NCBI GenBank assembly: GCA_014905635.1
Contig: JABVCE010000003.1
Span: 930,001 to 994,000 of the forward strand
Length of the DNA stretch: 64,000 bases
Reading direction: 5' to 3'
Source of the DNA: Scenedesmus sp. PABB004
Taxonomy: Eukaryota
Numbering within the stretch: the stretch's first letter is position 1; each line of letters begins with the position of its first letter. Of the stretch, positions 31,459-64,000 are shown piece by piece. The translations under genes were made by a program, and so were the position numbers. The notes under the pieces are model-generated. The model searched no databases. It had not been told where the DNA came from and saw only the letters and a program-made list of their open reading frames with translations.

Positions 31459-32098
31459 CGCGGCGTCACCGCGCCGCGCCGCGGCGCGCCGCCCCGGGCG
31501 CCGCGAGCGCTGGCGCTGGCCGCGAGCAGCGGCGGGCTGCGTGCGGCGTTGCGGCGTGGCCCGGCCCGGCCGCCTGCTGCGCCGCAGGCGTGGAGGTCGA
31601 GCGGCGGGCGCGGTCGCGCGCGGCGGAGCAGGCGCGCGCGCCGGGGGCCTGGCCGCTCCGCGGAGGCGGGCAACCGCCGCTGCGGCGGCAGCGGCGCGGC
31701 TGCTTGGGGCGCCCCTCTGCGGCGTGCGTGGCGTTCGCGTGTTCGCGCTCCGGCGTCGCGGCGCTGTGAGCACGTGGGCAGGACGGACGCAGCTTGGATC
31801 GCGAAGGCAGCAGCAGGGTTTGGCAGCAAACACAAACGAACGCGCGACGCAGCGGCGTGGCGACCCGGCCGGCCGCATGGAGCTGCCGGCAGTCGCTCCT
31901 GCGGCCGCTCTCCAGCCTGAGCACGCGCATACGCCCGCCCAGCGGCCCGCGCCAGCCCGGCACGCAGCAGCGGCGCGCGCCCTGCGCCGGCGTCGACGCG
32001 GCCACGTGGGGGGCGCCCGCCAGCAGCGCCAGCGTGGACGGCAGCAGCAGGCCGCGCGGGGGCTCCCGCTGACCGGGCGGCTGGCGGCGCCCGCCGCC

Positions 32099-34790
32099 AT
32101 GGCCGACGACGCGCCGGGCAGCGCCCCGAGCGCAGCGGACACGGTGCACGCCACCAACTTGGCGACCGCCGTGCTCGTCGTCCTGCTCGTGGCCTGGGCG
32201 CTCGGCGGGCACCAGCTCGCTGCGAAGAGCCGGCACCTGACCGAGGCGGGCGCGGCGGCGGGGCTCGGCCTCGCGACGGGCTTCGTGCTGCTGCTGCTGC
32301 GCGCCATGGGCGCCGCGGGCGTCGTCACGGGGCTGCTGGAGTTCAGCGCCGCCGGCTTCTTCACCTACCTGCTGCCGCCGGTCATATTCTTCTGCGGCCT
32401 CTCCGTCGACCGCGCCGCGTTCTTCAAGTCGCTGCCATCCATCCTGCTCTTTGGCGTCGCCGGCACGCTCGTGTCGTTTGTCATCATCGCGCTCTTCACC
32501 TACCTGGCGCTGGGCTTCGCGATGTTCAAGCTCGAGGCGCGGCCGCCGCGGGGGCGGAGGGCGGAGGCGCTGGACGCGGGGCGCGAGGCGGGGCGAGAGG
32601 CGGGGCGAGAGGCGGGGCGAGAGGCAGGCGAACACGCTGCGCCGACGCGCGCGACGGCCCGCCGCCCCCGCAGGACTGCCTCGCGCTGGGCGCCATCTTT
32701 GCGGCGACGGACAGCGTCGCGACGCTGCAGGTGCTCGACCGCGAGGCGATGCCGGGGCTGTTCTCCCTCGTCTTTGGCGAGGGCGTCGTGAATGACGCGG
32801 TCAGCGTGGTGCTGCTCGGCTCGGTCGCCGCGACCGCGCGCGCGCGCGCCGGCGCCGGCGCGGCCGCGCCCCACAGCGGCGCGTTTGCGGGCGGCGTGGT
32901 CGCAAACTTCATCTGGCAGCTTGGAACCAGCCTCGTGCTCGGCGCGGCGGCAGGGCTGGGCATCGCGGCGGCGCTCCGCCGGCTGACCATCACCGAGCCC
33001 CACCAGGTGCGGGGCACGGCGCCGCGCTCAGCCCTCTGTCCCTCCCTCAGCCCTCTCTCCCTCTCTCCCCCTCTCTCCCCCTCTCTCCCCCTCGCCCGCG
33101 CGCCCCTCCGCCGGCCGCCCACCTCCCGCCGCCCCTCCCCCGCCCGCTCCTGCGAGCACAGGAGCTGGCCGTCATAACGCTGCTGAGCTACCTCAGCTAT
33201 CTCCTGGCCGACGTGATGGGCCTCTCAGGCATACTCGCGCTCTTCGTGTGCGGCGCCGCAGTCTCACACTACGCGCTGCACAACATCAGCGAAACGGCGC
33301 GCCGCGTCGCGTCGCGTCGCGTCGCGCGCACACACACCCGCGGCGCCGCCGCGCGCGCCGCCGGGCCGCTCCCGCGCGCGCCCGCACGTCGAGCGCGCCG
33401 CGCGCGCTGCGTGCCGCAGGGCCGCGTGGCGGTGATGACGAGCTGCCGCACCGCGTCGTCGCTGGCGGAGGGGCTGATCTTCATTTACGTGGGCATGGAC
33501 TCGCTCGACCCGCTCAAGTGGAAGGTGGGCAGGCGCGGCGCGGCGCCCGCCCACCTTCCAGCGCGCGCCGCGGCGACACGCGCTCCCCGAGGCTCTCCCT
33601 CGCGCGCGCCCTCGCTCTCGGCCCAAACGGCACGCCGCCGCCGCCGCCGCGCGCAGGGCGCCAACGCCGCGGAGGCGCTGTGGCTCGTCGCCGTGCTGAC
33701 CGCGGTGCTCGCCGCCGCGCGCGCCGCGTTCGTCCTCCCGTTTTCGTTCGTGCACAACCGCTGGGCAGCGCCGGGCGACCGCCTGAGCAGCCGGGAGGTC
33801 GTGGTCGTGTGGTGGGCGGGTGCGTGCCATCACACGGCGGCGGCGGCGCGCTGCTGCGGCCCGGCGCCTAGCCCGCGCCGGCGGCGCGCCGCGACCCCCG
33901 GCCGCCCCGACCCGCCCCGCCGCGCCCCGCGCCGCGCCGCGCCGCCCCGCCCCCGCATGGCCGCGCTCACGCTGCCGCCGCCGCTGCCGCCCCCGTGGCG
34001 CAGGTCTGATGCGCGGCGCGGTGAGCGTGGCGCTGACGTACTATTACTTTGAGGACAACCCGCGCGCCCAGCTCGACCGCGGGCGCGCGACGCTCATCGT
34101 GTCGACGCTGATGGCGGTGATGCTCAGCATCTGCGGCTGCGGCGCGCTCACCAAGCCCCTGCTCGAGGCGATGCTGCGCGGCGGCGACGGGCCGCTGCGG
34201 GACCAGCTGCGCACGATCCCGCTGCTCGGGTGGGCCCGCGCGCCGCCGCCGCGGCCCCGCACGCGCCGCCACGGCGAGCCGGCCCCTGACACCTCGGCCG
34301 TCCCGCGCCGCCGCGCGCCGCGTCGCGCAGCACGCTCGCGCGTGACGACAGCAGCGCCACGCTGCTGATCGAGCAGCTGGACAGGGTCGGCGGCGGCGGC
34401 GGGAGCGGTGGCGGCAGCGGCGCGCTCGGCGGGCGCGGGGCAGCGGAGGCAGCGTCCAGCTGGGGCGCGGCCGCGCCCAGTCGCCTGGCTCCTGGCTCTG
34501 CGGTGGGCGCCGCGGCGGTGGAGCAGCAGCAGCCCGCGGGCGGCCCCGCGCCTGCACTGGAGATGCGGGGCGCGGGCGGCGCGGGCGGGGGGAGTGCAGT
34601 GCTGGGCGCGATTGGTGTGGCCTTGCGGGACTTTGACGCGGCTGTCATGCGGCCGACGTTTGGCGGCCCCGGAGCCAGCGCTGCTGGCGGCGGCGGCCCA
34701 GGCAGCGGCGGCCCCGGCGGCCCCCGCGGCGGCGGCCCTGGCGGCGGTGCCGGCAGCGGCGGCGGCGGCGGCGGCGACTTGCTGCTGTGA
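32099..34790 (+). CDS. NHX: Vacuolar-type Na+(K+)/H+ exchanger NHX (CPA1 family), about 8 exons
   Basis: FFTYLLPPVIF (amiloride site), GAIFAATDSVATLQVL, LVFGEGVVNDAVSVVL, LSGILALFVCG, FIYVGMD, WWAGLMRGAVSVAL, and C-terminal DFDAAVMRPTFGG. Confidence 0.95.
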
Positions 34791-35939: not shown

Positions 35940-36340
35940 CGCGCGGCGCGGCGTGCGGGGGCGAGCAGCGGCGGCGGCGGTGGTGGCCGCCGCTCCCGCT
36001 GCTGATGCTTCGCCTGCGCCTGCGCCTGCCGTCGGCTGATTCGGTGGGGCGCCGGTGGCGCTTGTGGGGCGCCTGGGGCGGCGGACGCGACCGGGCGTCG
36101 CCGTCGTTTGCGCCGCCGTGACGAGAACCCCGCCGCCATACCGCAGGCCTACCCCACCGCGCAGGCGGCTCCGCACACTCGCTGGGCAGGTTGACGGACT
36201 GCGCCGCGCGCTCGCCGCCGACGCCAGGCCACACGCGCTGCCGGCGCTGCAGCGCCCGGCCGCCGCCGCTCCTCCCCGGGGCCGCCGCGGCCGCCCGTTC
36301 TGACGCCCAGGCCACGCACTTGCTCGTTCCGAACGATCAA

Positions 36341-39300
36341 ATGCTGTCCCGCCGTCCGCTGCGGCCTGCGCGGCCGGCGCCTTCGCGAGCGTTTCGCCGA
36401 GCGCGCCCCGCGCGACCCCTGCTGGCCCGAGGGGCGCTGCCGTGGGCAGCTGACGTCGTGGGCGTGACGCCCGGCCAGCGCCTGCAGGCGGGCGGCTCGC
36501 CCGGTGGCGCCGACGCGGCGCCGCCGCTGCCGGGCGGCGCGAGCCCCGGCTGGGAGCAGGCGCCGCCGCGGCAGCCCGCCGCCCCACCGCCCCCGGGCGC
36601 GGCGGAGGAGCAGGAGCTGCAGGAGCAGCAGGGCGCCGGCGGGCTGCACCCCGGCATTGTGCTCGCGTGGGGGGTGGCTGTGTGCGGCGCCGCCGCGGCC
36701 GGGCTCTGGCTGGCGGGCGGCGAGGCGGCGCTCGGGGGCGCGCCGGTCACCGCCGCCGGCGTGGCCGCGCGCCTCGAGGCGGCGGTGCCGGCGCTGCTGG
36801 GGACCTGCGCGGCGCTCTGGCGCGGCGCGCTCCTGGGCTGGCAGCACGCGCTGGCCGCGCTCGCGGGCGGCGCGGCGACGCCCCCCTGGCTGGCCGCCGC
36901 GGCCGCCGCGGCCGCGGCGCTGCCGTGGCGCGTGCTGGGCGGCGCCGCGGCGCTGGCGGCGGTGGCGTGGGCGTCGCGGCGGCACGCCGCGGCCGAGACC
37001 GCCGCCGTGCGGGCGGCGTATGAGCGCCAGCTCGAGGCGGCGCTGCAGGCGGCGCAGGGCCAGCAGGCGGCCGATGCGGCGCAGATGGTCCGGCTGCTGC
37101 AGGAGCTCGGCGTGCCGCCCGGCGCGGCCGCGCCCGCGCCCGGCCAGGCGCGGCAGCAGCAGGCGGCGCAGGCGCAGCAGCGCGGCGGGCAGCGCGCGTG
37201 GCCGCCCGGCGGCGGGCCCATGGCCGAGCTGCGCCTGCGCCTGCAGAGCCTGCGCGGCGCGCTCGAGGCGCGCGCGAGCGCGCAGCGCGAGACGCAGCGC
37301 CAGCTCGAGGCGCAGGTTGGCGAGGTGCGCGCCCTGCGCAGCCGCCTGGCCTCGACGGAGCAGCAGCTCGCGGCGGCGGCGCGCGGCGGCGCGCGCGGCG
37401 CGCCCGCCGGCGGCGTCGACGTGGCGCGGTTCCAGGAGCTCGCGCAGGTCACCGCGCGGCTGACAAACCAGTGCAACCAGCAGCAGCAGCAGCTGGCGCA
37501 GATGACGGCCGCCAACGCGACGCTGCAGCAGCAGCTCGCGCAGGCGTACGCCGCCGGCGACGACGCCGGCGGTGCCGGCGCGCCCGTGGCGCAGCTGGCG
37601 GCCGAGCGCACGATGCTCGCGGCGCAGCTGGCGCAGCGCGAGCAGCAGCTCGCGCAGGTTCAGGGGCAGGTGCAGTCGCTGGCCGCGCAGCAGGCGCAGC
37701 TGCAGCAGCTGCTGCGCGCGCGCGACGCCGCGGTGTCGGAGGGCCAGCTCGAGGCGGTGGCGTACGCGGAGGCGCGGCAGCAGCTGCTGGACAAGGAGGC
37801 GGAGCTGTCGGGCGTGCTGGCGCAGCTGCGGGAGCGCGAGGCGCGCGGCGGCGCCGCGTCGCCGGCGGCGGGCGACGACGCGGGGCTGGCGCTGGCGCGG
37901 GCCGAGGCGGAGTGCCTGGAGCTGCGCGGCCAGCTGCAGGATGTCAAGGCAGAGCTGCGCAGCAGCAACCTCAACGCCGAGCTGCTGCAGCGCGAGCTCG
38001 CTGCGCGCGGCGCCGCCGGCGGCCCCACCGAGGCGGAGGAGGTGTGGGCGGCGCAGCAGCGGCTGGCAGCGGCCGAGCAGCGCAGCGCCGAGCTCCTGCT
38101 GGCGCTCCAGCAGCGCGACAGCCAGCTGCAGGCGATGGAAGGTGACCGCCGCGGCGCGGCCGGACCTGGGCTGTTCCTGCGCCTGCTCGCGCCTGCACTG
38201 CTGCCCGCTCGCTCACGCACCGCGCGCCTGCCGCTGCCGCGCTCGCCCGCCAGGCGAGCTCGCGGCGTCGCGCTCCGAGGTTGCTGTGCTCAGCGAGCTG
38301 AGCGCCGGCGCCGAGTCGATGCGGGAGGAGCTCACAGCCGAGCTGGACGCAACGCGTGGTCAGATGGCGGCGCTGGCGGCGCAGCTCGAGGAGAACGGCA
38401 TGGTGAGGCGCTGCCGCTGACGCTGCTGCCGCTCCAACCCCCCCCCCCCCCTCCGCTTGCCGCCACAGGCCACAGGGATGGTCGGCCCGCGCCGCCGATG
38501 CCGCGCCGCCGACGCCGCGCCGCCGACGCCGCGCCGCCGACGCCGCGCCGCCGACGCCGCGCCGCACACCTGCCACGCCACACGCAGGCGCTGGAGCAGG
38601 AGCTGGCTGCGAGCGCCGCATCGATGCAGCAGCTGCAGCAGGAGCTGCTGACGCGCGACGTCGAGGGCCAGCTGCTCCGCCAGCAACTCTCGGCCGCGGG
38701 GCAGCAGCTGCAGCAGCTGACAGAGCAGCTCACGGCGGGCCAGGCGGCGTCCGTGGAGCTGGCCGCGGCGCGCGCGGAGCTGGCCGAGCTGGCGGCGCGC
38801 AACGCCGAGATCGCGACGGAGGCGGCGGCGCAGCGCGAGCAGCTCGCGGTGACCGCCGCCGCCGCCGCTGACCAGGCGGCCGCGCTGGAGGCAGCCAGGG
38901 CGGAGGCGGCCAGCACAGCGGCCGCGCTCGACGCCGCACGTGAGCAGCAGGCCGCCGCGGCGGGCGAGGCCGAGGCGCTGCGCGCCGAGGTGGCCGCCCT
39001 GCGCGACGGCGCGGCGTCGCTCGAGGCCGCGCTGGCCGAGGCGCGCGCCGCCGCCGAGCGCGCGCGCGCGGACGCCGACGCGCTCGCGGGCCAGCAGGAG
39101 CAGCTTGTCACGCAGCTCGCCGCCGCTGCGGCGGTGAGGGAGTCTGCGGCGAACCAGGCGACCTCCACAAGCGCGCAGCTGGACATCGTGTCCCAGCAGC
39201 TGGACCTCGTGATCCAGGAGAAGGCCTCTGCCAGCAGCGCGGCGGCCGAGGCGGAGGGCCAGCTCGCTGCGGCGCGCCAGGAGCTTGCGGAGCAGGCGGC

Positions 39301-40779
39301 GCAGCTGGAGGACACCCAAGCGAGCCTCCGCAAGCGCGCGCAGCAGGTTGAGGAGCTGCAGCTGGCGCTGGAGGCGCGGCGCGTGGCGCTGGAGGACAGG
39401 GACGCCCAGCTGGAGGACCTGCAGGCGGCGCTGGCTGCGGCGGACGAGGCCGCCGAGGCGGCGCAGGCGGCCGCGGCAGACCGGGAGGGCAGGCTGGCGG
39501 CGGCGGGGGCGGAGCGGGAGGAGGCCACGGCCGCGGCCACGTCGGCGGCAGAGCGTGCGGCCGCGGCGCTGCAGCAGGAGCTGGGCGAGGCCAGGGCGGC
39601 GCTCGCGGCCCAGCAGGCGGAGCTGCAGGCGGCGGCTGCGGCCGCGGACCAGTCGCGCGCGCAGGCGGCGGCCGCCGAGGCGGAGGCCACGGCGCTGTCC
39701 GCCGCGGCGGCCGCCGCCGAGGCGGAGGCAGCCGCGGTGGCCGACAAGCGCGAGGAGGCGGAGGCGCAGCTCGCGCTCGCCCAGCAGCAGCTTGACGCGG
39801 CGCGGCTGCAGGTTGCGGAGCGGCAGCAGGGCGACCGGGAGGTGCAGGCGCTGCAGGCCCGGCTGGACGCGGCGGAGGCGCAGGTCGCGGCGGGCCAGCA
39901 GCAGGCGCGCGAGCAGGAGCGGCAGCGCCAGGCCCTCGCGGCGCAGCTCGCCGCGGCGGAGGGCGACGCGCAGGCGCTGCAGGCGCAGCTCGCGGGCGCG
40001 GGCGCCGCCCAGGCCGAGGCGGAGGCGGGCCTGGGCCGGCAGCAGGAGCAGGTGGCGCAGCTGGAGCAGGCGCTCGGCGACGCGCGGCGCGAGCTGGAGC
40101 AGCTGCGCGCCGCGGCCGGCGAGGCCGCCGCGGCCGGCGACGCCCGGGCGGCGCTGGAGCGGGAGCTGGCGGCCAGCGCGGCTGCCGCGGCGGGCGCGGA
40201 GGCGGCGGCCGCTGCCGCGGGCGCGCAGGTGGCGGAGCAGCGCGAGGCGGCGGCGGCGCTGCGCGCGCAGCTCGCCGACAGCGAGCGCGACGTGGCGGCG
40301 CTGCGCGCGCAGCTGGACGAGGCGGCGGCCGCCGCCGCCGCGCGGCAGGAGGAGGCGGTGGCGGCGGCGCTGCTGCAGCGCGCGCCGGCCGAGGCGGGCG
40401 CCGCGCGCGCGGCGGCGCCCGCGCCCGCGGCGCCGCCGGTGGTGGCGAGCGCCGCGGGCGCGGCGGCGGCTGCCGCGGCGCCCAGCCCCGCGGACGCAGG
40501 CGGCGAGGCCGGCGGCGGCTGGCTGAGCTACGTGCAGACCTACCTGCTCGCGGACGAGCTGCCCGAGGGCGGCCGGCTGAGCCACGGCGCCATCGTCGGC
40601 CCCGACTCGGGCGTGTGGGCCGCCGACGCGGGCTTCCCGCCGGTGTCGCAGGCCGAGGCCGCGGAGCTCGCGGCGCTGCTGCTGCAGCGCGGCGACGGCG
40701 CCGGCGCCGGCCGCGGCGCGCGCGCCGCCGAGGTGCGCATCGGCGGCCGCGCGTACGACGCGACGCCCGCGCCGGCGGC

Positions 40780-40810
<31 letters not shown>

Positions 40811-41023
40811 GCCGAGCAGGGCACCGCCGCGGCGCCGCTGCTGGTGTGCCGCGCCAAGGGCGGCGGGCCGTTTGGCATGGGCGGCGGCAAGGCGGGCGGC
40901 GCGGTCGCGCTCACCGGGGGCGGCACGCTCGTGGTGGCGCTGTGGGACGACAAGCGCGCGGAGCCGGGCTGCGGCGCCGCGGTGGCGCGCCTGGCGGCGG
41001 CGCTCGAGAGCTACGGCTACTGA
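36341..41023 (+). CDS. Large protein: transit-peptide-like N-terminus, hydrophobic/TM segments, ~1000-aa coiled coil and a C-terminal profilin domain; 3 exons (introns 38142-38253 and 38403-38587)
   Basis: ATG at 36341. Hydrophobic segments GIVLAWGVAVCGAAAAGLWLA and WRVLGGAAALAAVAWA. Heptad A/Q/E/L-rich body. Profilin motifs from 40520: WLSYV..L, LSHGAIVGPDSGVWA...FP, IGGRAY, LVVALW, VARLAAALESYGY-stop. Confidence 0.85.
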
Positions 41024-41608
41024 GGGCCGGGGGGCTGCGTGTGCACCGAATTTGGTGTGAATGTGGTGTGAGCGGCGCTGGGGTTGCATCGCTTTGCTGA
41101 CACTTCAAGAAGCGCGCGCGCACGGCGCGACGCGCAGCGTCCGCCCGCCGCCGACGCGCTGCCAGGCCGCCCCATTGCGGCCCGGCGGCGCGCGGCGGCC
41201 GGCGGCGCTCGTGTGCACGGTTCTTTGGGGGTCACTCAATCGTTGATTGGGCGGGTGCGTGCGACGATCAGGTCATGTTGGCCGGCGCTGCCGGCGCTGG
41301 CTGCGCGTGCAGCGTGCAACTGCGGCGGCCGCGCCGGTGACGCTCCCGCTCGCCCCGCAGACTGCATCATCTGGGTGTCCGCGAGTGCAGGGCGCGTCCC
41401 GGAAGCCTGCCAAGCAGGAGGCGGTGCGTTCAGCCAGCAGCTGACCAGCAGCTGACTCACCCGGGGGCCCTTTTTCAATCGATCAAACGCTGCGCCCGCT
41501 CGATCACGCTGCCGCCTGCGCGTCCCGCTCCTGCACTCTCGCCCGGGTCCCGGCAGCCGCTCGTCCGCGGCCTCCTCCCTCCCGGCTTCTTTCGGAGCTG
41601 CTGCAACG

Positions 41609-42769
41609 ATGGCGCGCGCCGCGCTCGCGCTCTGCCTCTTCCTGGCCGTGGCGGGTGCGTGTCCCGTCATGCGCAAGGCTCTCGGCAGCAGTCGGCGCTG
41701 CGCGGGGCGATGACGGGCGGCGTGTGCGCGGGGGCGCGCAGCTCAACCACCTCGCGATCACGCCCGGCGCCCGCCGCGCCGCGCCGCCCGTCACAGGCTC
41801 GGTACTGGCCACCGAGAACCCGACCAAGAACAGCACCGCCGTGATGGTGCGGGCGGCACCGGCGGCACCGGCGGCGCGCGGCCGCTGCTGCTCCCTGACC
41901 GCGCCCGGCCGCCGCCGCCCGCAGGCGCGCATTGAGCTCGACAACACGGTGAAGCAGGTCAACGCCAGCCTGGCCAAGCTCAAGACGTGCGCGGCGCCCG
42001 CGGCGCGCGCCTGCGCCGCGCGGCGCCGGCCCGACGCGCGCCTGCCCACCCCCTCGCCTCGCTGCGCAGCAACATCGCCAAGGAGCTCTGCGGCGTGCCC
42101 GAGACCGACGTGACCATCCACAAGGTCATGGACGACTCCACGAAGATCGCCGGCATCGGCAACACCCAGACCGTCGTGTACGCGTCCTGCAAGGCCCCCA
42201 ACGCCAAGCTCGAGGGCGTGCGCGACGACTGCGAGGACCTCTGGAACAGGGTGCGGGCCCGCTCTTGCACGGCCCGCGCAGCGCGCCGCCAGGCCCCGGG
42301 ATCTCGCGCCGTCGTGCTCGCGCGCACCCGCCGACCCGCGCGCCGCCGCCCCGCGCGCGCCCGCGTGCGGGCCCCCAGCACCAGGTCAAGGACGAGACCA
42401 AGGACTCGACCTCCTGGTGGAAGGGCGGCGAGCTGGAGGTCGACGACATCAAGTGGTGAGCGAGCCGCCGCCCGGGGCGCGCGCCGCGCCAGCGCCGCGC
42501 CCAGCCGCGCGGCCGCGCTTGCGCTGACGCCGCCGCGGCGGCCGCCTGCGCGCGTGTCGTGTCGTGTCATGAATGCGCGCAGCCGCTACGTCGAGAACAA
42601 CAATCCCGTCTACTTTTCGCGAGGGGACGAGACTAAGGCCGCCGCGACGACCGTAAATGGCACCGCGGCCGACGGCATGACGATGAAGCCCGCCGGCTCG
42701 GCCGCCGCCGCCGCGCTGCCTGCGACGGCGCTGGCGCTCGCGTGCGCCGCGTTCGCGCTGCTGCTGTGA
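41609..42769 (+). CDS. Secreted, probably GPI-anchored surface protein of unknown function, 6 exons
   Basis: Signal peptide MARAALALCLFLAVAG, N-glycosylation sequons (NST, NAS, NGT), four Cys, and a C-terminal GSAAAAALPATALALACAAFALLL-stop GPI-type signal. Confidence 0.8.
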
Positions 42770-43228: not shown

Positions 43229-44295
43229 TCAGTCGCCCTCTTCGTCCGACGACTCGCCAAACGCCGCGCTCACGGGCTGCTTCGCGCCGGCCGCCCCGAA
43301 CCTGAGGCGGCCGCCACCGCCGCGGCCCCCCGCCATGGCCACGCCCGGCCGCTTCGCGCCCAGGCCGCCGCCGCGCGCCGGGCCCCTGCCAGCGAGGCCG
43401 CCGCAGCCGGGCGCGACCTTTTTGAGGCCAAAGCTCATGCCGCTGCCCGACGCGATCGCCTCCACCCGCTCAGGCGGCAGCTCAGCGGGCGGCGGCGGCG
43501 GCGGCGGGGGCGGGGGCGGCGGCGGCTCCGGCGTCGCTGCACCCGAGGACCGGCCGGCGCCCGCGCCGCCGGCGGCGGCCCCAGGCTCCGCGTCTGGCGG
43601 CTGCCCCGGCGGCAGCGGCGGCGGCGGCGCGTGCTGGTCCGGCTGCTGCGGCTGGCCCTGCTTCGCGGCTGCTGCCTGCGCCTTGCGGATCCTGCGGTCC
43701 GGCGGCGGCGGCGGCGGCGGCGGCAGCGGCAGCGGCGGGTTCGGCGCGCGCTCGGCGCGAGCGTGCGGGCGCAGCAGCGCGCCGCCGCCGGGCACGGCGC
43801 GACGCACTGCTCCTCCAGGCGCTGCTGCTCGCGCTGCTGCTGCCGCTGCTCCTTGCGCTGCCGCTCGTCGCGCGTGCGCTCCAGCTCCGCGGCGCGCGCC
43901 TCCGCCAGGCGCTGCGGCGCGGCGCGGCGGGCGGGCGGGTGGGCGGGCAGCGCGGCGCGTCGGCGCCACCGGCCGCGGAAGCTGTCTGCCCCCCGCTCCC
44001 CCGCCCACCCCCCAACACACACACGCACCTTTTTGTGGTGGTGGTCGTAGCTGCTCAGGTGCTCCTCCAGCTCCATGGCCGTCGCGTACTGCTTGACGCA
44101 CACCTGTGGGGCGCGCGGCAGCGGCGGCCGGGGCGTCGCGGCAGGGCCAACACGCGCGCTGGCGGCCCCGCCGCGCTGCGGCGCGCGTCCTCCCTCCCGG
44201 CTCGCCCCGCGCGCTGACCTGGCATAGGAACGTCCGAAGAATCTCCGTGACGTCCTGCTTGATCGCCTCGTCGCGCGCGGCCTGGGCCTGGCGGC

Positions 44296-44340
<45 letters not shown>

Positions 44341-45058
44341 AGTGAGGCGCGCCGCGCCGCCGCGGCGCCCGCCCGCGGCGCCCGCCCGCGGCGCGGCGTC
44401 CGCACGCAGCGCGGCGCCCACCGCGCACCTCGCGCCGCCGCGTGCGGTCGGGGTCCTCATCCGCCTGGATCTCCACCTCCAGCCTCTTGCGCACGATGCC
44501 GTCCGCCGCGGTGAACGCGTCGTCCTGCGCCTGCTTGCCCAGGCCCAGCCGCACGCCCGCCTCGACGCCCGCCGACACGGGCTCCACCAGGCCTGGCGCG
44601 GCGCGGCGAGCCGCCGCGTGAGCGCGCCGCGCCGCGCAGCGCCGCGCGCGGCGTGCCAGCGGAGGCGCGCGTGCGCGCACCGTCCTCGTTCCTGCCCAGG
44701 CCCTTGCCGGACCAGCCCATCTTCTGCAGCAGCTGGAAGCCCTTGTTGCTCGCATCGAGCGGCGCGCTGGCCGACGCCGCGGCGGCGAGCGGCGGGCCCT
44801 CGCCGATGGGGAACCAGTACGGCATGTCCTCCAGCGGCCCCTCCTCGTCGACCTGTGACAGCGGCGGGAGCCGGTGGGCGGCGGGGCGGAGCGCCAGGGG
44901 CACCGCAGGCGCCGCGGCGGGCCGGCGCTGGCACGCGCTGCTGGTGCGCCGCTGCGCACCAGCGCGCCAGCGGAGAAGGCTGCGCCCCGCGGGGCCGAGA
45001 GCTTGGGGTCGACCACCACCGGCACCGGCCCCGGCGGCGGTGGCGGCGGTGCCTCCAT
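43229..45058 (-). CDS. G-patch plus C2H2 zinc-finger protein (GPATCH8-like)
   Basis: G-patch LDASNKGFQLLQKMGWSGKGLGRNEDGLVEPV...RLGLGK; zinc finger FLCQVCVKQY...EEHLSSYDHHHKKRL; terminus FGESSDEEGD. Confidence 0.9.
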
Positions 45059-45303
45059 CGCGGCGCGGCGGTTGCCGCTGCCGCCGCTGCTGCTGCGGCT
45101 GCTGCTGCTGCTGCTGCGCCTGCGCGTGCGCCTGCGCCCGCTGTGCCACGTGCGGCATTGCCGCTTGCGGGTCTGGACAGCCGGGCTCAGTTCAGCAGCC
45201 AGCTTGCGCCCTCGCCGCTGCACCGCCGCCCGCTCGCACGCGCTCGCCCGCGCAGCATGTCCCAGCTGCTCTCACAGCAAGCTCACGTCACTCGCGCTCC
45301 ACG

Positions 45304-46955
45304 TCACTCGTCCTCCTCGCCGCCGCCCTCGGGGTCGTCGCCATCGCTGCCGCCCTCGTGCGGCACGAGGCCCGCCGCCTGGGCGAGCGCCTCGGCCAGC
45401 TTGTAGCTGCAGTACCGCGCGTCGAACCGCATGTCGTACCAGTAGTTGACGGCGACGCACCAGCGCTCATCGCCCGCCCCCGCCTGCGCGACCCAGTGCC
45501 ACCACAGCGCCGGCAGGTAGAGCACTTCGCCGGCGTGCACCTGCGGGGGTGTGTCAGGTCAGGGTGCGTCAGGCCGCCGCCGCCACCGCCGCAGCCGCCG
45601 CCGCCGTGGCCCGCAGCTGCGCCAGCTGCAGCTGCAGCCGCAGCCGCGGCCGGGCCCGCACCTCCACGCGCAGCGGGCGCGGCAGCCCCGGGTCAAAGAA
45701 GAGCGCGTGCTCGGCGCACGGCCGCCCCGGGTCAACCGGGCTCCACAGCACGCGCGGCGCGCCCAGCTGCAGCACAGGCACGAGCTGCCCGTCGGCCCCG
45801 CCCTGCGGCGCGCCGCGCGCGCAGGAGTCGGCCGCCGCTGGCCGCGGGCTGGCCGCCCGCGGGCGTGCGGCGCGGGGCGGCGCACCGGCTCAAACTGCGC
45901 GGCGGCGTAGCGCTGCAGGGCGAGGCGCCAGCAGTCGGATGGCGGGAGCAGGACGAAGGTCTTGGTGCCGGTGATGACCGCGTAGAGGTTCTCATAATTG
46001 TCCTTGTGAAAGGTCGTCACCGCGCGCTCGTCGCCTGGTGGCACGTGCCGCGGCGGGCGGGCGGGCGGCGCGCGCTGAGGGCGGGCGGGCGGGCGGCCGG
46101 GCGGGCGGCGCGCGCTGGCGGCGGGCGGCGCGGACGCCCGCCTCCAAGGGAGGCGGCGCGCCAGCGAGCGGGCGAGGAGCCGGCTGCGCGCACCGATCCA
46201 CAGGTTGACGGCGTCCGGCGGCGCGTCAAACGCCTCGGCCGCAAACGCGAGCTGTGCGTCGACGTCCGGCAGCAGCGCGGGCAGCTCCTCGGTCAGGTTG
46301 CTGTTCTGTTGTTGCAAATACGGCACCTCGCCGCTCGCCGCTGCCCGGCTGTCAAAGAAGAGCTGCAGGAAGGCTCGCAGGCTCATGCGGCGCTTGTGGG
46401 GCGTGCAGAAGCACAGCGCGGGCGCGGCGCCGCCGCCGGGCGCGGCCGCCGGTGCGCAGGGCGTGACCGCGTCGCCGCGGCCGTTGGGCGTGACGTCGAC
46501 CGAGATGGTCGCGTCGCCCGCGGCCGACTCCAGCCCCGCGCGGCTCCAGCAAGACCGCGCCGGCCAGTGGTCGATCGCGCCTGCCGCGCCGGCGGCGGCG
46601 GCGGGTGGGGGCTTGGCTGGCCGGCCGCGCAGGCGCAGCGCCACGCGCGCGGGCGCAGCGCCGCACCGCGGATGAGCAGCGGCTTGTTTGCGCCCACAAA
46701 GTCGCGCAGGAACGTCGCCGCGCTCGGCGGCCCCTCCACCACCTGTACCGCGGTGCCGACGTCCAGCTCCCGCAGCTCGCGCGAGTTGCGGGCGAGGAGG
46801 GCGAGGAGCTCCGCGCGTCCGCCAGCTGCACCGGCAGCACCGGCAGCGCCGGCAGCACCGGCAGCACCGGCAGCATCGGCAGCGCCAGCAGCGGCGGCGG
46901 CACCGGCAGCGGCGGCAGCGGCGCCGCTGCCGCACGCCGCGCCGGCGGCAGCCAT
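45304..46955 (-). CDS. JMJD7: JmjC/cupin-8 hydroxylase JMJD7-like, 5 exons
   Basis: FLRDFVGANKPLLIRGAIDHWPA, VDVTPNGRGDAV, YLQQQNSNL, PDAVNLWIGD, FHKDNYENLY, GEVLYLPALWWHWV, AVNYWYDMRFD. Confidence 0.93.
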
Positions 46956-58125: not shown

Positions 58126-59118
58126 TCACGCCCAGCCAAACAGGAAGGCGTTGGACACCGCCGGCAGGCGCGTGCCGTGCCCCGCCGCGGGCGCGGGCTG
58201 GCGAAAGGGGTTCAGCGCCGGCCCCAGGTCAAAGCCCCGCCCCAGGACCGCGGCCGCGAGCGCGCCCGACTGGGCCGCCGCCTCCTCGCAATAGTCCGTG
58301 AACAGCACCGGCACGCCGCGCCACGGGGCCGCTGGCGGGCCGCCGCCGCCCGCGCCGGCACCCGGCACTGGCGGCACTGAGGAGGTCTCCGCGCTGGTTT
58401 CGCAGGCGGCGGGCGGCGGCGCCAGGCGCAGCAGCGCGCGCAGCGACGGCAGCCAGGAGGGGAAGGCTGGAAGGCCGGCGTTGGGCGCGAGCACGAGGGA
58501 CAGCTGCGCCAGGTCGGGCGGCGCCGCGGCCGTCCAGGCGGCCGGCACCGACCCCGCCGCGGCCCCGCCGTCGCTCGCTGCTCCGCCCGCCGCTGCTGCG
58601 CCGCCGCTGTGCTGCCACTCGTCGGCGACGTCGTGCCAGCAGCCGGCCCAGCAGCTGACCGTCAGGCTGCCGCCGCCGCCTGCGGCGGGCAGACGGCGGC
58701 GGTGAGCGGGGCCGCGCTCGTGCCTCGCGCCGCGCGCGCGCTGCCGCGCAGTGCGTCACGCCCGCTGCCAGCGCACCTGCGGCTGCCGTGCTGCAGGCCT
58801 TGCCGTGCAACTCGGCCGGCACGTCCGGCCCGCACAGGTGCACCCGCAGCGTGCGGCCAGGCAGCAGCGCGCACAGCTCCGCGAACGCCGGCAGCAGCTG
58901 CAGCTCCGCCTGCGGGCCTGCCGGCGGCGCGCGGCGCAGCTGTGGTGAGGCCGCGCGCCAGCCCGGCGCGCTCGCGGCGCGCCGCTCCGCGCCGGCGCAC
59001 CGAGGTACGCGACCGTGAGCGTGCCGCCCGCGCCCGGCAGCGGCCAGCCCCTGCCGGGCAGCACGCGCGCCAGGCAGTGGCCGAGCGTCAGCACGAAGTG
59101 AAGCGCCAGGGCTGCGCA

Positions 59119-59832: not shown

Positions 59833-60165
59833 GGCTGCTGCGATTAGAGCGGCGGCGGGCGTGCGGCGCTTGGTGCTGCGCGCGGCGACAGGCGAAGCAG
59901 CGGGCCGACGCCCCGTCGCAACGTCACTAGCGCGGCGTCCGCATGCGCATGCGGCGGCGGCGCCCCCAAGCACTCCCGCCCGCCGCGCCGCTCAGCAGCC
60001 TGCTCGCGTGCTGCCAGCAGCACCGACAGCAGCGCCCGCGCACCGCGCGCCGCCGCGGCGGCGCCGCTGCCCCCCGCGGCCGTCTCGCGCCCGCCCCGCC
60101 ACCGTCGCGGCTCCGGCTCGCAGCACCGGCGCGGGGCGGGCCGCCCGCGCGCCGGCGGCGCGGGG

Positions 60166-61878
60166 ATGGCGGGCATGATGCCGCCGCCGCCGTCGCGGCC
60201 CGGCAAGCGGCGCGTGGTGCTGGAGGAGGACCAGTTTGCGGGGGCCATCGAGGCCATCGTGGAGCGCGACTTCTTCCCGCAGCTGCCGAAGCTGCAGAAC
60301 CAGCTGGAGTGGCTTCAGGCAGTGCAGAGCGGCGACCCCGCGGCCATCAAGCGCGCGCAGCTCAACATCGCGCGCCGCCGCGCGGGCCTGCGCACGCCGC
60401 TGGCGGGCGAGCCGCTCCCCGGCGGCGGCACCACGGGCTGGCTCGCGACGCCGGGCACGGGCCTGCTGCGCACGCCCGCGATGACGCCGGCGCTGCCCGG
60501 CGGCGGGCCCGTCATGCCCGCGTCCACGCCCGCGCGCACGCCCGCGGGCGCCGCCGCGGCGGCGGGGCTGGCCGAGGCAGGCATGGACCCCGTGGCGGCG
60601 CAGGCGGCCGCGGGCGCGCGCGCGCCGCCGCTGGGGCTCGACCAGTTCCTCTCGGCGTACCAGGGCGAGGACAACGCGAGCTTTCAGGAGCTCCAGGCGC
60701 GCACGCTCGAGCGCAAGCGCGCGCGCGTGGCGCACCACCTCGTCGACCACAACGCGCCGCTGCGCCTCGAGGTGGGCGGGCACGCGACGGACGAGTACGG
60801 CACGTCCGGGCAGGCGCCGAGCACGCTCGTGCCGACGCGGCACGTCCCCAAGAACGCCCTCTACTACGACTCGTCCCAGCAGCGCGCGCTGGCGCTCTCG
60901 GCGGCGGAGGAGGCGGCGATGGTGCAGGGCCCGCCGCGCGCGATCAACCACGCCGGCACGCGCGCGCTCGCGCCGACCGGCGACGCGCCCGCGGCGCCCG
61001 GCCTGCTCGCCGGGCCGCCCGGCGGCGTCGGCGGCGGCGGCAGCGGCGACGGCGGCGACGGGCCGGACGCGGGCGGCGGTCGGCCCAGCCGCGTCGCGGC
61101 CGCGGCGGACGCGCCCGGCACGAGCGGCTACGGCTACATGCGCACGCCGCAGATCGCGCCGGGCGTGGGCGCGTCGCCGCTGATGACGTGGGGCGAGCTC
61201 GCGGGCACGCCGCTGCGGCTCGACGGCGAGTGCGACGACATCGAGGGCCTCGCCGCCCTGCTCGGCGAGGAAAATGGCGGCAGCGTGCGCCAGTTTGCGC
61301 TGCCGCGCGTGCGGCCGCGCGAGCTCGCGGCGCAGCGCATGATGGCCGGCCGCGGCGGCAGCGCCGCGCGGCGCGGCGGCGCCGCCGGCGGCCCGCTCGG
61401 GCGCAGCGCGACGCCGCTGCTCGACTCGCTGCGGCGGCGCGGCGCGGCCGGCGGCGCGACGCCGCTGTCGGCGGCGGGCCAGAAGCTCGCGCAGGCGCTC
61501 AAGGGCGGCGCCGGCGCCGGCGCGCGGCCCGGCACGGGCCCGCGCGGCGGCGGCCGCGCGGCCGCCGCCGGCGGCGACGCGGTGGACCTGCAGCTGCGCG
61601 CGAGCTACGCGCGCGCCGGCACGTCCACGCCCGCGCGCGCGCCGGGCAGCTGGGAGGCCGCCACGCCGGGCCGCGACCGCGGCGGCAGCCGGCCGCCCTC
61701 GTCGGCGCGCGCGCAGCCCGGCGGGGCGGCGGGGAGCGGGCGGCGCGGCGCGGCGGCGCTGGCCGCCGCGGTCGCGGCGGGCGGCGGCGGGGCGCCGCGG
61801 CAGCAGCAGCCGGCAGCGGCGGCGGCAGCGCCCGCCGCCGGCGGCAACCTAACGGACGACCTGCTGCAGCTGGGTTGA
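60166..61878 (+). CDS. ESS2: Splicing factor ESS-2/DGCR14 (Es2), single exon
   Basis: VLEEDQF..IEAIVERDFFPQLPKL, LDQFLSAYQGEDNASFQEL, PKNALYY, GYGYMRTP, SPLMTWGELAGTPLRL, LSAAGQKL, DLQLRASY, NLTDDLLQL. Confidence 0.95.
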   Translation: MAGMMPPPPSRPGKRRVVLEEDQFAGAIEAIVERDFFPQLPKLQNQLEWLQAVQSGDPAAIKRAQLNIARRRAGLRTPLAGEPLPGGGTTGWLATPGTGLLRTPAMTPALPGGGPVMPASTPARTPAGAAAAAGLAEAGMDPVAAQAAAGARAPPLGLDQFLSAYQGEDNASFQELQARTLERKRARVAHHLVDHNAPLRLEVGGHATDEYGTSGQAPSTLVPTRHVPKNALYYDSSQQRALALSAAEEAAMVQGPPRAINHAGTRALAPTGDAPAAPGLLAGPPGGVGGGGSGDGGDGPDAGGGRPSRVAAAADAPGTSGYGYMRTPQIAPGVGASPLMTWGELAGTPLRLDGECDDIEGLAALLGEENGGSVRQFALPRVRPRELAAQRMMAGRGGSAARRGGAAGGPLGRSATPLLDSLRRRGAAGGATPLSAAGQKLAQALKGGAGAGARPGTGPRGGGRAAAAGGDAVDLQLRASYARAGTSTPARAPGSWEAATPGRDRGGSRPPSSARAQPGGAAGSGRRGAAALAAAVAAGGGGAPRQQQPAAAAAAPAAGGNLTDDLLQLG

Positions 61879-62185: not shown

Positions 62186-64000
62186 ATGGGCGAGCAGCAG
62201 CAGCACGGCGCCGGCGCCAGCGGCGCCGCGCCGCCCGCCGGCGCCGCTGCTGCGCCCGGCGCGGCCGCTCCGGCGCCCGGCGCGGCGTACCAGGTCGCGG
62301 GCTTCGAGGTCCGCTTCCCGCACGAGGCGTACGGCGTGCAGAAGGTGTTTATGAACCAGGTGCTGCGGGCGATCGACCACGAGGAGAACGCGCTGCTCGA
62401 GGCGCCGACGGGCTGCGGCAAGACGCTCTCGCTGCTCTGCGGCGCGCTGGCGTGGCAGAGCGCGCAGAAGGCCAAGCGCGCGGCGGCCGAGGCGGCCAAG
62501 CGCGCGGCGGCCGCGGCGGCGGGCGCCGGCGAGGAGGGCAAGGGCTGCTTCGCCGACGCGCAGCAGGCCTGCTGCGCGGTGCCCGCGCCCGGCGCGGCCG
62601 ACGCCGACGACGCGTCGCCCCCGCCGCCGGACGAGCCCGTGACGGTGCCCAAGATCTACTACGCGACGCGCACGCACTCGCAGATCGCGCAGGCGCGGCG
62701 CGCGCAGGGGCGGCCGGGAGCGCAGCGCGCGCAGCGCGCACAGCGCGCGCACCGCGCACGCTCACCAGCCGCCGCCGCCACTGCCCTGGCAGGTGGTGCG
62801 CGAGCTCAAGCGCACCGCCTACCGCCCCAAGATGACCGTGCTGGTGCGCCGCCGCCGCCGCCGCCCGCCGCCCGCCGCCCGGCGCGAGCGCCTTGCAGGA
62901 CGCGGCCGCGCGCGCTCACCCGCCGCGCCCGCCGTGCGCCGCGCCCGCCGCCCGTTCTGCAAGGGCGCGCGGTCGCACTACTGCATCAACCGCGCCGTCG
63001 TGCGCAGCGGCGCGATCGACGCCAAGTGCGAGGAGCTGCTCAAGGAGCGGTCGGGCTGCCCCTACAAGAAGAACGCGGTCACGCTCACGCACGGCGTCGT
63101 GCAGGCGCGCCGCCGCCGCCGCCGCGCCGCGCGCCGCCGCCCGCCCCGTGCGCGCGCGCGCGCGCCACGGCCCCCGCGCTGAGCTGCCGCTCCGGCGCCT
63201 GCGGCGCGCCGGCAGGTGCACGACATCGAGGACCTCGCGCGCATCGGCACGCGCCGCAAGGCGTGCCCCTACTTTGCGGCGCGACACCTGGCCGACAGCG
63301 CGGAGCTCGTCTTCTGCCCCTACTCGTACCTGCTCGACCCGGGCATCCGCCGCGCGACCAAGGTGCAGGCAAGCGACGCGGTGCTCATCTTTGACGAGGC
63401 GCACAACATCGAGGACCAGGCCAGGCGCGCGCCGCCGCCGACGCGGCGAGCCCTCCCTGCGCCGCGCCGCGCCGCGCCGCGGCGAGCGCGCGCGCCGCGC
63501 CACGTGACGTGACGGCCGCCCCTCACGTGCCGCGCGCGCCAGGGAGGCGGGGTCGACGGAGCTGGACCTGGAGCAGCTCAAGCTCACCTTCCTCTCGCTC
63601 TCGCGCGCGGCGGCGATGAGCAGCGAGGCCGAGACGTACACGCCGCTGCGGGACGCGGTGCTCGCGGTGCGCCGCCGCGCTGCCGTGCCGCTTGCTGCTG
63701 CGCGTATGCGCCGCCGGCCTCGCTGCTCAGCGGCCGGCCGCGCGCGTGGGCACCGCGTGCCCACGCCGCGCCGCCGCGCGCCCGCGCCACCGCCCAGGTG
63801 ATCCAATGGCTCATTGGCCTCGCCGCCAACGGCGCCAGCTCCCCGGGCTTCAAGCAGTCCGGCTTTGAGCGCTTCGAGCGCATCTGGCGGGCCCGCCGGT
63901 GCGCGGCGGCGGCGGCGGCGGCGCGGCCGGCCCGCCCGCGCCGCCCGCGCGCCGCCTCACGCGCGGCAACCGCCGCGGCCGCGCGGCGGCCCCGCGCGCC
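62186..64000 (+). CDS. BRIP1: XPD-family Fe-S DNA helicase, FANCJ/BRIP1-like (RTEL1 not excluded); 5' part only, runs off the window
   Basis: Q motif VRFPHEAYGVQ, Walker A LLEAPTGCGKT, IYYATRTHSQIAQ, Fe-S cysteines RSHYCIN/KCEE/GCPY/ACPYF, FCPYSYLLDP, IFDEAHNIED. Confidence 0.9.

Follow-up and report, generated by a model that had tools for sequence, protein, structure and literature searches.

A profilin-type domain at the end of a predicted long coiled-coil protein of Scenedesmus sp. PABB004

The gene described here lies on the plus strand of a 64,000-nucleotide stretch of DNA from Scenedesmus sp. PABB004 (contig JABVCE010000003.1, positions 930,001 to 994,000; the whole stretch is called the window in the following). 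It very probably encodes a single protein in which a long coiled-coil rod is joined through a hinge to a C-terminal domain with a true profilin fold (Table 1). The GC content of the window is ~79% (0.74-0.82 in all 2-kb bins), and its short exons with a third-position GC of 0.9-1.0 indicate eukaryotic nuclear DNA. Antisense frames in the window stay open for 700-900 codons due to this extreme composition, and the length of an open reading frame alone is therefore no evidence for a gene. An antisense reading of the locus was rejected: the minus-strand frames 36152-38212 and 38363-41104 gave no Pfam match and are explained by the GC-rich third positions of the plus strand. The stop-to-stop frame 36122-41023 (plus strand) is open over 1633 codons; by simple arithmetic about one stop per 100 codons is expected at the base composition of the window. 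Joining of three exons yields a coding sequence of 4386 nucleotides and 1461 residues without an internal stop, in good agreement with the single spliced frame of about 1460 residues that had been proposed in a first-pass annotation, and both introns have GT-AG borders. The third-position GC of ~0.97 in the frame of this gene is restricted to the exon stretches, and read-through translation of 38142-38587 results in Arg/Pro junk. Only two ATG codons, 36341 and 36005, are present in any frame between 36000 and 36700; since the latter meets an in-frame stop at 36119-36121, translation likely starts at 36341. The third-position GC of the first 30 codons is 0.70, compared with 0.95-1.0 from ~36460 on.

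The C-terminal domain of the protein (the head) was identified as a profilin by sequence and by predicted structure. A Pfam search with the translation of 40481-41020 gave a match to PF00235 with 35.8 bits (cut-off 25, E 9.9e-9); the alignment reaches only profile positions 2-68 because inserts interrupt the remainder. In the entire protein profilin was the sole Pfam match, and Csm1_N stayed below its threshold (16.8 bits, cut-off 26.3). A phmmer search of the PDB sequences returned 23 matches at E<=1, of which 22 are profilins, with plant profilins as the best ones (E 2.3e-7). The AlphaFold2 model of the head, based on an 11-row alignment (pLDDT 81.2, pTM 0.79), has its helices (6-15, 50-65, 151-170) and strands (26-32, 38-41, 76-80, 83-90, 113-118, 132-137, 143-148) in the order of a profilin, and only two Gly/Ala-rich inserts were modelled with low confidence. 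When this model was compared with the PDB by Foldseek, all of the matches listed were profilins or profilin-containing chimeras; 39 had E<=0.001, and the target-normalised TM-scores of the top 20 ranks were 0.71-0.81. The closest solved relatives of the head are plant profilins according to both phmmer and Foldseek, in keeping with a green-lineage origin though no proof of it. Both checks that the first-pass annotation had suggested for the domain, a comparison with PF00235 and a structure prediction followed by Foldseek, thus speak for a profilin, and the head is indeed located where it had been placed (40520-41020, followed by the stop codon).

Third-position GC, determined in windows of 20 codons, remains at 0.90-1.00 from the rod (40181) across the hinge into the head and falls to 0.5-0.7 straight after the stop codon; the hinge is accordingly coding. 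No ATG is present in 39500-40520 in any frame, and the only in-frame ATG codons of exon 3 are located at 38624 and, within the head, at 40877. With no ATG in the 1 kb before the head, a stand-alone profilin cannot start here, and the earlier statement that rod and head are separated neither by a stop nor by an in-frame ATG holds for 39500-40520. The dinucleotide GT occurs in 40300-40500 only at 40358, 40439 and 40442. An intron that begins at one of these sites would leave the rod joined to the head, and a private first exon for the head would have to fall within the coding sequence of the rod. A separate profilin gene that is spliced at the AG near 40499, the case named in advance as speaking against a fusion, is therefore unlikely, given the missing ATG and the unbroken codon bias.

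When 1.84 billion representative proteins were scanned by HMMER with the 173-residue head, 48 matches were obtained at E<=0.001. Five of them have the domain in full or its C-terminal motif, namely P0002 (173 residues, 62% identical to the head), P0003 (334 residues, 44% identical, with 167 residues upstream of the domain), P0004 (a fragment of 52 residues), P0005 (258 residues, starting without Met) and P0018 (191 residues, 46 of which precede the Trp). A profile search added P0050 and P0051 and increased the number of relatives to seven; the five proteins that it returned, unnamed or annotated as 'hypothetical protein', stem from contigs of 2.4-15.7 kb in JGI, ENA or Logan assemblies. Head and relatives make up a small family of profilin paralogues. 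Two other matches, P0019 (2277 residues) and P0043 (1547 residues), were rejected as unrelated repeat proteins that had been matched via the Gly/Ala insert. Seven of the other 41 matches were inspected (P0015, P0016, P0027, P0037, P0041, P0044 and P0047); they are canonical profilins or fragments thereof and align mostly over the first 50 residues.

A rod, or the end of a rod, and a hinge precede the head in two of the seven relatives (P0003 and P0005), and none of the seven contradicts this arrangement. Residues 1-70 of P0003 are rich in Gln, Leu, Glu and Ser and show heptad periodicity (z=5.7, reached by 0 of 300 shuffles); they are followed by an Ala-rich linker and by a domain that matches PF00235 over profile positions 1-127 with 66.4 bits. 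P0005 has a Gln/Leu-rich start that continues into a Pro/Ala/Gly hinge. A Met directly before the first Trp is found in none of four sequences (window protein, P0003, P0005 and P0018); six canonical matches (P0015, P0016, P0027, P0037, P0041 and P0047) start with Met-Ser-Trp. The records of P0002 and P0051 start within the first helix and P0050 reads intron-like just before it, so that these three give no information on the fusion. In their lineage an intron seems to be located inside the first helix of the head, and the window gene has no counterpart of it.

In BLASTP comparisons of P0003 and P0005 with exon 3 the head alone aligned, and the rods were not alignable. A word-based protein search for long fused relatives of 858-2730 residues found none at E<=0.01. 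The same type of search at 304-2000 residues also returned no fused relative; this blank is weak because low-complexity words crowded the search, and P0003 with its 334 residues was missed, too. No usable match was obtained from the ESM Atlas with exon 3 or with P0003, and no related locus was found among genome contigs and viral contigs searched with a narrow alignment. A metagenome locus (L001) that had been picked up with the narrow alignment was discarded as a chance pattern match on a bacterial-looking contig of 56% GC, and its frame was taken for a putative mechanosensitive-channel-like gene. The protein databases searched hold no named member of the family, reference eukaryotic proteomes being perhaps under-represented in them. 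In agreement with the first-pass annotation, no description of a protein of this architecture was found in the literature and databases searched, whose coverage extends to papers outside subscription.

The residues of the head were assessed in an alignment of the head family with the canonical profilin P0037, using the strands of the AlphaFold2 model and residue roles known from profilins in general. The polyproline platform of profilins consists of an N-terminal Trp and Tyr, a Trp of the second strand, a Tyr or His of the last helix and the C-terminal Tyr. Four of these five positions are kept in the head (W1295, Y1298, W1327 and Y1461). The last-helix position is occupied by Ala1455, and a Tyr that is invariant in the family (Tyr1459) sits one helical turn beyond it. 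The claim that all residues of the binding face are present is thus correct for the N-terminal Trp and Tyr, the 'VWA' Trp and the terminal Tyr; the Tyr that canonical profilins carry midway along the last helix is replaced. Arg and Lys of strand 5 are kept as R1405 and K1407 ('CR.K', compared with 'IRG.K' in P0037). Invariant and specific for the family are two Cys residues, one ahead of the conserved Arg and the other ahead of the last helix, and the 'YGY' at the C-terminus. Judged from these residues, the chances that the head still binds polyproline ligands appear to be even, binding of actin is doubtful, and the capture of a polyproline ligand would be the more likely of the two activities. 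N-terminal fusions of human profilin impair the binding of polyproline and of lipids unless a flexible linker is used, according to a report on such constructs (PMC9249392), and in view of this need the natural hinge would fit a head that keeps the respective face free.

The rod was analysed with a home-made periodicity test in place of COILS or MARCOIL, in which the positions of Leu, Ile, Val, Met, Phe, Tyr and Trp are compared with 300 shuffles. Residues 215-1250 have a 3.5-residue hydrophobic periodicity of 0.574, compared with 0.143+-0.027 after shuffling (z=16, reached by 0 of 300 shuffles). The periodicity is significant in all three thirds of the rod taken separately (z 8.5-10), and the N-terminus and the head gave z values of about 0. 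The Gly/Pro-rich breaks of the rod are found near residues 251-300 and in a few other places. The 340 C-terminal residues were modelled as a single helix of 133 residues (pLDDT above 90), 38 unstructured residues and the head; the hinge has a pLDDT below 50 (residues 136-171 of the model) and no secondary structure. Both the heptad coiled coil of about 1000 residues and the Ala/Pro hinge that the first-pass annotation had described are supported by these data and by the composition of the hinge. A coiled coil rises by ~0.15 nm per residue, and a rod of ~1000 residues would thus span up to 100-150 nm.

Asp and Glu are completely missing from the first 37 residues, and the composition of residues 1-100 (Table 1) corresponds to the Arg/Pro/Ala-rich, acid-poor N-terminus noted before. 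For a candidate transmembrane helix at residues 106-124 the insertion energies add up to 0.17 kcal/mol on the scale used, on which the next best segment has 4.58. Two further hydrophobic stretches, residues 141-165 and 190-209, have Kyte-Doolittle values of 1.47-1.48 and insertion energies of 4.6-5.3 kcal/mol on the same scale; they score below poly-Ala on the former and like a beta-strand of the head on the latter. Kyte-Doolittle values near 1.5 mean little because the proteome is so rich in Ala, and the two stretches are not convincing as membrane helices. The hydrophobic segments assigned to ~36650-36980 are found at these positions, and only one of the three resembles a membrane helix; likewise, the designation of the protein as membrane-anchored is reduced to one plausible transmembrane helix ~105 residues from the start, and nothing points to the plastid as its location. 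Whether the predicted protein is anchored in a membrane is in our opinion evenly balanced. The N-terminal leader also holds a PPPP run (residues 82-85, 36584-36595), the sole one of the protein, on the N-terminal side of the hydrophobic helix. This is the type of motif that profilins bind, and a head-to-tail self-contact is conceivable; a complex prediction for the head with its own Pro-rich residues 56-100 scored 0.02 (mark 0.34), from which nothing was concluded.

The neighbourhood of the gene is included in Table 1. The last clear exon of the Na+/H+ exchanger gene upstream is located near 34290. No Pfam match was obtained for the small gene downstream, the product of which may be a secreted or lipid-anchored protein. 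A second profilin locus was not found by tblastn within the 64-kb window. Intron 2 contains a 14-nucleotide tandem repeat (38487-38565; 5.6 copies, 98% matches).

Table 1. Features of the rod-and-head gene, of its predicted product and of the neighbouring genes (positions refer to the window)
Feature	Positions	Strand	Remarks
Exon 1	36341-38141	+	residues 1-600 plus one base; likely start ATG 36341; donor AAG/GTGACC
Intron 1	38142-38253	+	112 nt; AAG/GTGACC...CCGCCAG/G, GT...AG; codon-position GC pattern lost
Exon 2	38254-38402	+	149 nt; coiled coil, in a frame other than that of the read-through
Intron 2	38403-38587	+	185 nt; ATG/GTGAGG...ACGCAG/G, GT...AG; codon-position GC pattern lost
Exon 3	38588-41023	+	remaining rod, hinge, profilin head; TGA stop 41021-41023
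Arg/Pro/Ala-rich N-terminal region	36341-36640	+	residues 1-100; P 20%, A 20%, G 13%, R 12%, E 5%
Candidate transmembrane helix	36656-36712	+	residues 106-124; Kyte-Doolittle 19-residue mean 2.04, maximum of the protein
Two weaker hydrophobic stretches	36761-36967	+	residues 141-165 and 190-209; Ala/Leu/Gly/Trp-rich, internal Arg in each
Coiled-coil rod	36983-40402	+	residues ~215-1255; split by two introns; several short Gly/Pro-rich breaks
Ala/Pro/Gly hinge	40403-40516	+	residues 1256-1293; A 54%, P 15%, G 13%
Divergent profilin domain (head)	40517-41020	+	residues 1294-1461 (168 aa); three Gly/Ala-rich loop insertions
Na+/H+ exchanger gene, upstream neighbour	31994-34293	+	multi-exon; PF00999, 44.7 bits on exon 32632-32889
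Small downstream gene	41865-42766	+	coding-like exon 41999-42298; hydrophobic C-terminal tail 42665-42766
G-patch domain and Cupin_8/JmjC-like domain exons, one gene or two	43738-45996	-	44637-44939, 38.1 bits; 45307-45549, 50.8 bits
MSS51_C	58129-58755	-	Pfam match
Es2 nuclear protein	59848-61875	+	179 bits; apparently a single long exon
DEAD_2 helicase exon	63183-63509	+	Pfam match

Profilin, which ranks among the best-studied regulators of actin, is normally a small, free and diffusing single-domain protein, and models of formin- and Ena/VASP-driven assembly rely on a diffusible pool of it. The head has the same fold as canonical profilins (PF00235; plant structures PDB 6iqi, 3nul and 5fef; Chlamydomonas PRF1), matches their profile significantly and shares with them four aromatic residues (Trp and Tyr near the N-terminus of the domain, Trp in the second strand, Tyr at the C-terminal end) as well as Arg and Lys in strand 5. 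However, canonical profilins are free proteins of ~125-140 residues with a Met-Ser-Trp or similar start, whereas the head represents the C-terminal 168 residues of a protein of 1461 residues, 1293 of which are located upstream. It also differs from them by its three Gly/Ala-rich insertions, the Ala in the last helix, small residues in strand 6, the Cys pair and the 'YGY' end. The profilins of Apicomplexa and trypanosomatids (PDB 3nec, 2jkg and 8c47), which are among the Foldseek matches with target-normalised TM-scores of 0.48-0.67, likewise illustrate that the fold tolerates lineage-specific loop insertions, but these are free single-domain proteins with structured inserts, in contrast to the poly-Gly/Ala loops of the head.

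Golgins and other long coiled-coil tethers have a long segmented coiled coil with a membrane end and a small binding module at the opposite end, a design that the protein described here would share if its candidate helix acts as a membrane anchor. A heptad coiled coil of several hundred residues as in golgins is present here (z=16, modelled helix of 133 residues). Golgins are usually anchored C-terminally and capture vesicles via N-terminal motifs; we know of no golgin with a profilin domain, and the golgin-type domains GRIP and GRAB were not detected by Pfam in the protein. A similar logic is found in CHUP1, the actin nucleator of the chloroplast outer envelope of streptophytes, which combines an N-terminal hydrophobic anchor and a coiled coil with a module for profilin and actin. 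CHUP1 works with free profilin and has an FH2-like domain as well as a proline-rich motif; when profilin is present, the C-terminal domain of CHUP1 promotes the polymerisation of actin (10.1101/2020.01.14.905984). Orthologues of CHUP1 are reported to be missing from chlorophytes (PMC4853393). There is no sequence relationship between the two proteins, profilin being the only domain that Pfam found above threshold in the one described here. CHUP1 uses free profilin, while in the protein described here profilin itself would be tethered and a nucleating domain is missing. None of the characteristics of the CHUP1 C-terminal domain (FH2-like fold, F-actin-binding region, proline-rich motif after the coiled coil) is found at the C-terminus of the window protein, which has a profilin fold instead. 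The analogy to CHUP1 is functional only.

In the best-supported reading the rod would keep the profilin-type head away from the place where the N-terminus is attached, and the protein would act as a tether for actin or formins; as far as the predicted architecture allows a judgement, this reading is about as likely to be right as wrong. The protein would probably dimerise through the rod, which would hold the head up to ~100-150 nm away from the site of N-terminal fixation, most likely a membrane. The head could then capture proline-rich partners, such as the FH1-type region of formins or similar sequences, and possibly actin monomers. Such a capture would either localise actin assembly or tie the attachment site to the actin machinery. 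The logic of CHUP1 would be inverted: CHUP1 holds a proline-rich bait for free profilin, and here profilin would be the tethered part. In its most far-reaching version this reading implies that profilin, otherwise a diffusible chaperone of actin monomers, has become a fixed device in a small clade of microbial eukaryotes that are rich in GC and probably of the green lineage. The device would consist of membrane-anchored dimeric stalks of roughly 100-150 nm, the tips of which capture FH1-type proline-rich nucleators, alone or together with actin monomers, and so organise actin assembly at an organelle or at the plasma membrane. This would be a counterpart of CHUP1 with reversed roles in a lineage without CHUP1; we consider this extended version tentative and, taken as a whole, rather unlikely.

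Several properties of the head weigh against a tether for actin. Every member of the family has Ala or Val in place of the last-helix Tyr ('GDYL' in P0037), the Lys-Lys pair of strand 6 ('IKKT' in P0037) is Ala-Leu in the head and Ala-Leu or Ala-Ala in the family, and strands 5 and 6 are separated by an additional Gly-rich loop of ~12 residues, on the side that profilin turns towards actin; two more low-complexity inserts are present elsewhere in the head. The loss of the last-helix Tyr and of the basic pair, together with Gly-rich loops near the turn between strands 5 and 6, would also be expected if the fusion is real and the profilin fold has been taken off actin, to serve as a generic binding or oligomerising knob on a structural coiled-coil protein, such as a cytoskeletal or organelle-associated scaffold, with or without an anchor. 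The Cys pair and the 'YGY' end, invariant in the family and not present in canonical profilins, suggest a new constraint of this kind, and the weakness of two of the three hydrophobic stretches is in agreement with it. Yet members that are 44-62% identical to the head retain the Trp/Tyr/Trp of the platform and also the terminal Tyr, and Arg and Lys of strand 5 are kept in five of the six relatives that cover this region (P0018 is the one without them). Conservation of this kind is predicted by a retained profilin-type binding and disfavours a repurposed head, which we regard as somewhat unlikely.

Other points against the tether concern the N-terminus, the gene model and the relatives. Anchoring depends on a single plausible helix 105 residues into the protein, behind a leader that resembles an organelle presequence, and at 79% GC both Arg/Pro/Ala leaders and Ala/Gly/Leu stretches readily arise from composition alone. 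Within the gene model the 5' end is least secure, and a further exon may be located upstream; the transcript structure as such we infer from the DNA. The seven relatives come from metagenome or read-assembly contigs, on which all of their genes were called incompletely or from a wrong start; none of them includes the N-terminal anchor, and coiled-coil-like sequence upstream of the head is seen in only two. If the leader were a cleavable presequence for plastids or mitochondria and the helix a stop-transfer anchor of the inner membrane, rod and head would reside inside the organelle and would have nothing to do with actin. The absence of Asp and Glu from the first 37 residues and the Arg content of residues 1-100 (12%) would fit such an import, as would the position of the helix ~105 residues into the protein, since the helix of typical signal-anchored outer-membrane proteins is at the extreme N-terminus. 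But leaders of this type are produced by a GC content of 79% alone, the first 30 codons carry the weakest coding signal of the gene, and a profilin with a polyproline platform has no known partner within organelles; a location inside an organelle is thus improbable. Similarly improbable, if anything more so, is that the fusion is no real one, either because the profilin is a separate gene spliced at the acceptor near 40499 or because the frame is unexpressed or decaying and held open by its GC content. The indirect nature of the transcript structure, the long open frames on both strands at 79% GC and the intron-like stretch just before the first helix in the P0050 lineage, which implies introns near the start of the head in relatives, would be compatible with such an artefact. 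Against it stand the lack of an ATG within 1 kb upstream of the head, the unbroken third-position GC (0.90-1.00) over the hinge, and the restriction of GT sites in 40300-40500 to 40358, 40439 and 40442, so that even a splice that removes the hinge still joins rod and head. P0003 and P0005 have coiled-coil or hinge sequence in frame upstream of the head, the strong codon bias and the heptad periodicity over 4.4 kb speak against decay, and the antisense frames have no Pfam match.

If the interpretation as a tethered profilin is correct, the fixing of a profilin to the tip of such a rod would represent a new use of the fold and a natural experiment on tethered profilin. It could also open a way to study how organelles are coupled to actin in those algae that have no CHUP1 system of the streptophyte type. 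The natural hinge is of practical interest, as engineered N-terminal profilin fusions work only with a flexible linker (PMC9249392). If, on the other hand, actin is no longer bound by the head, the family would be an example of a profilin fold recruited as a generic binding knob.

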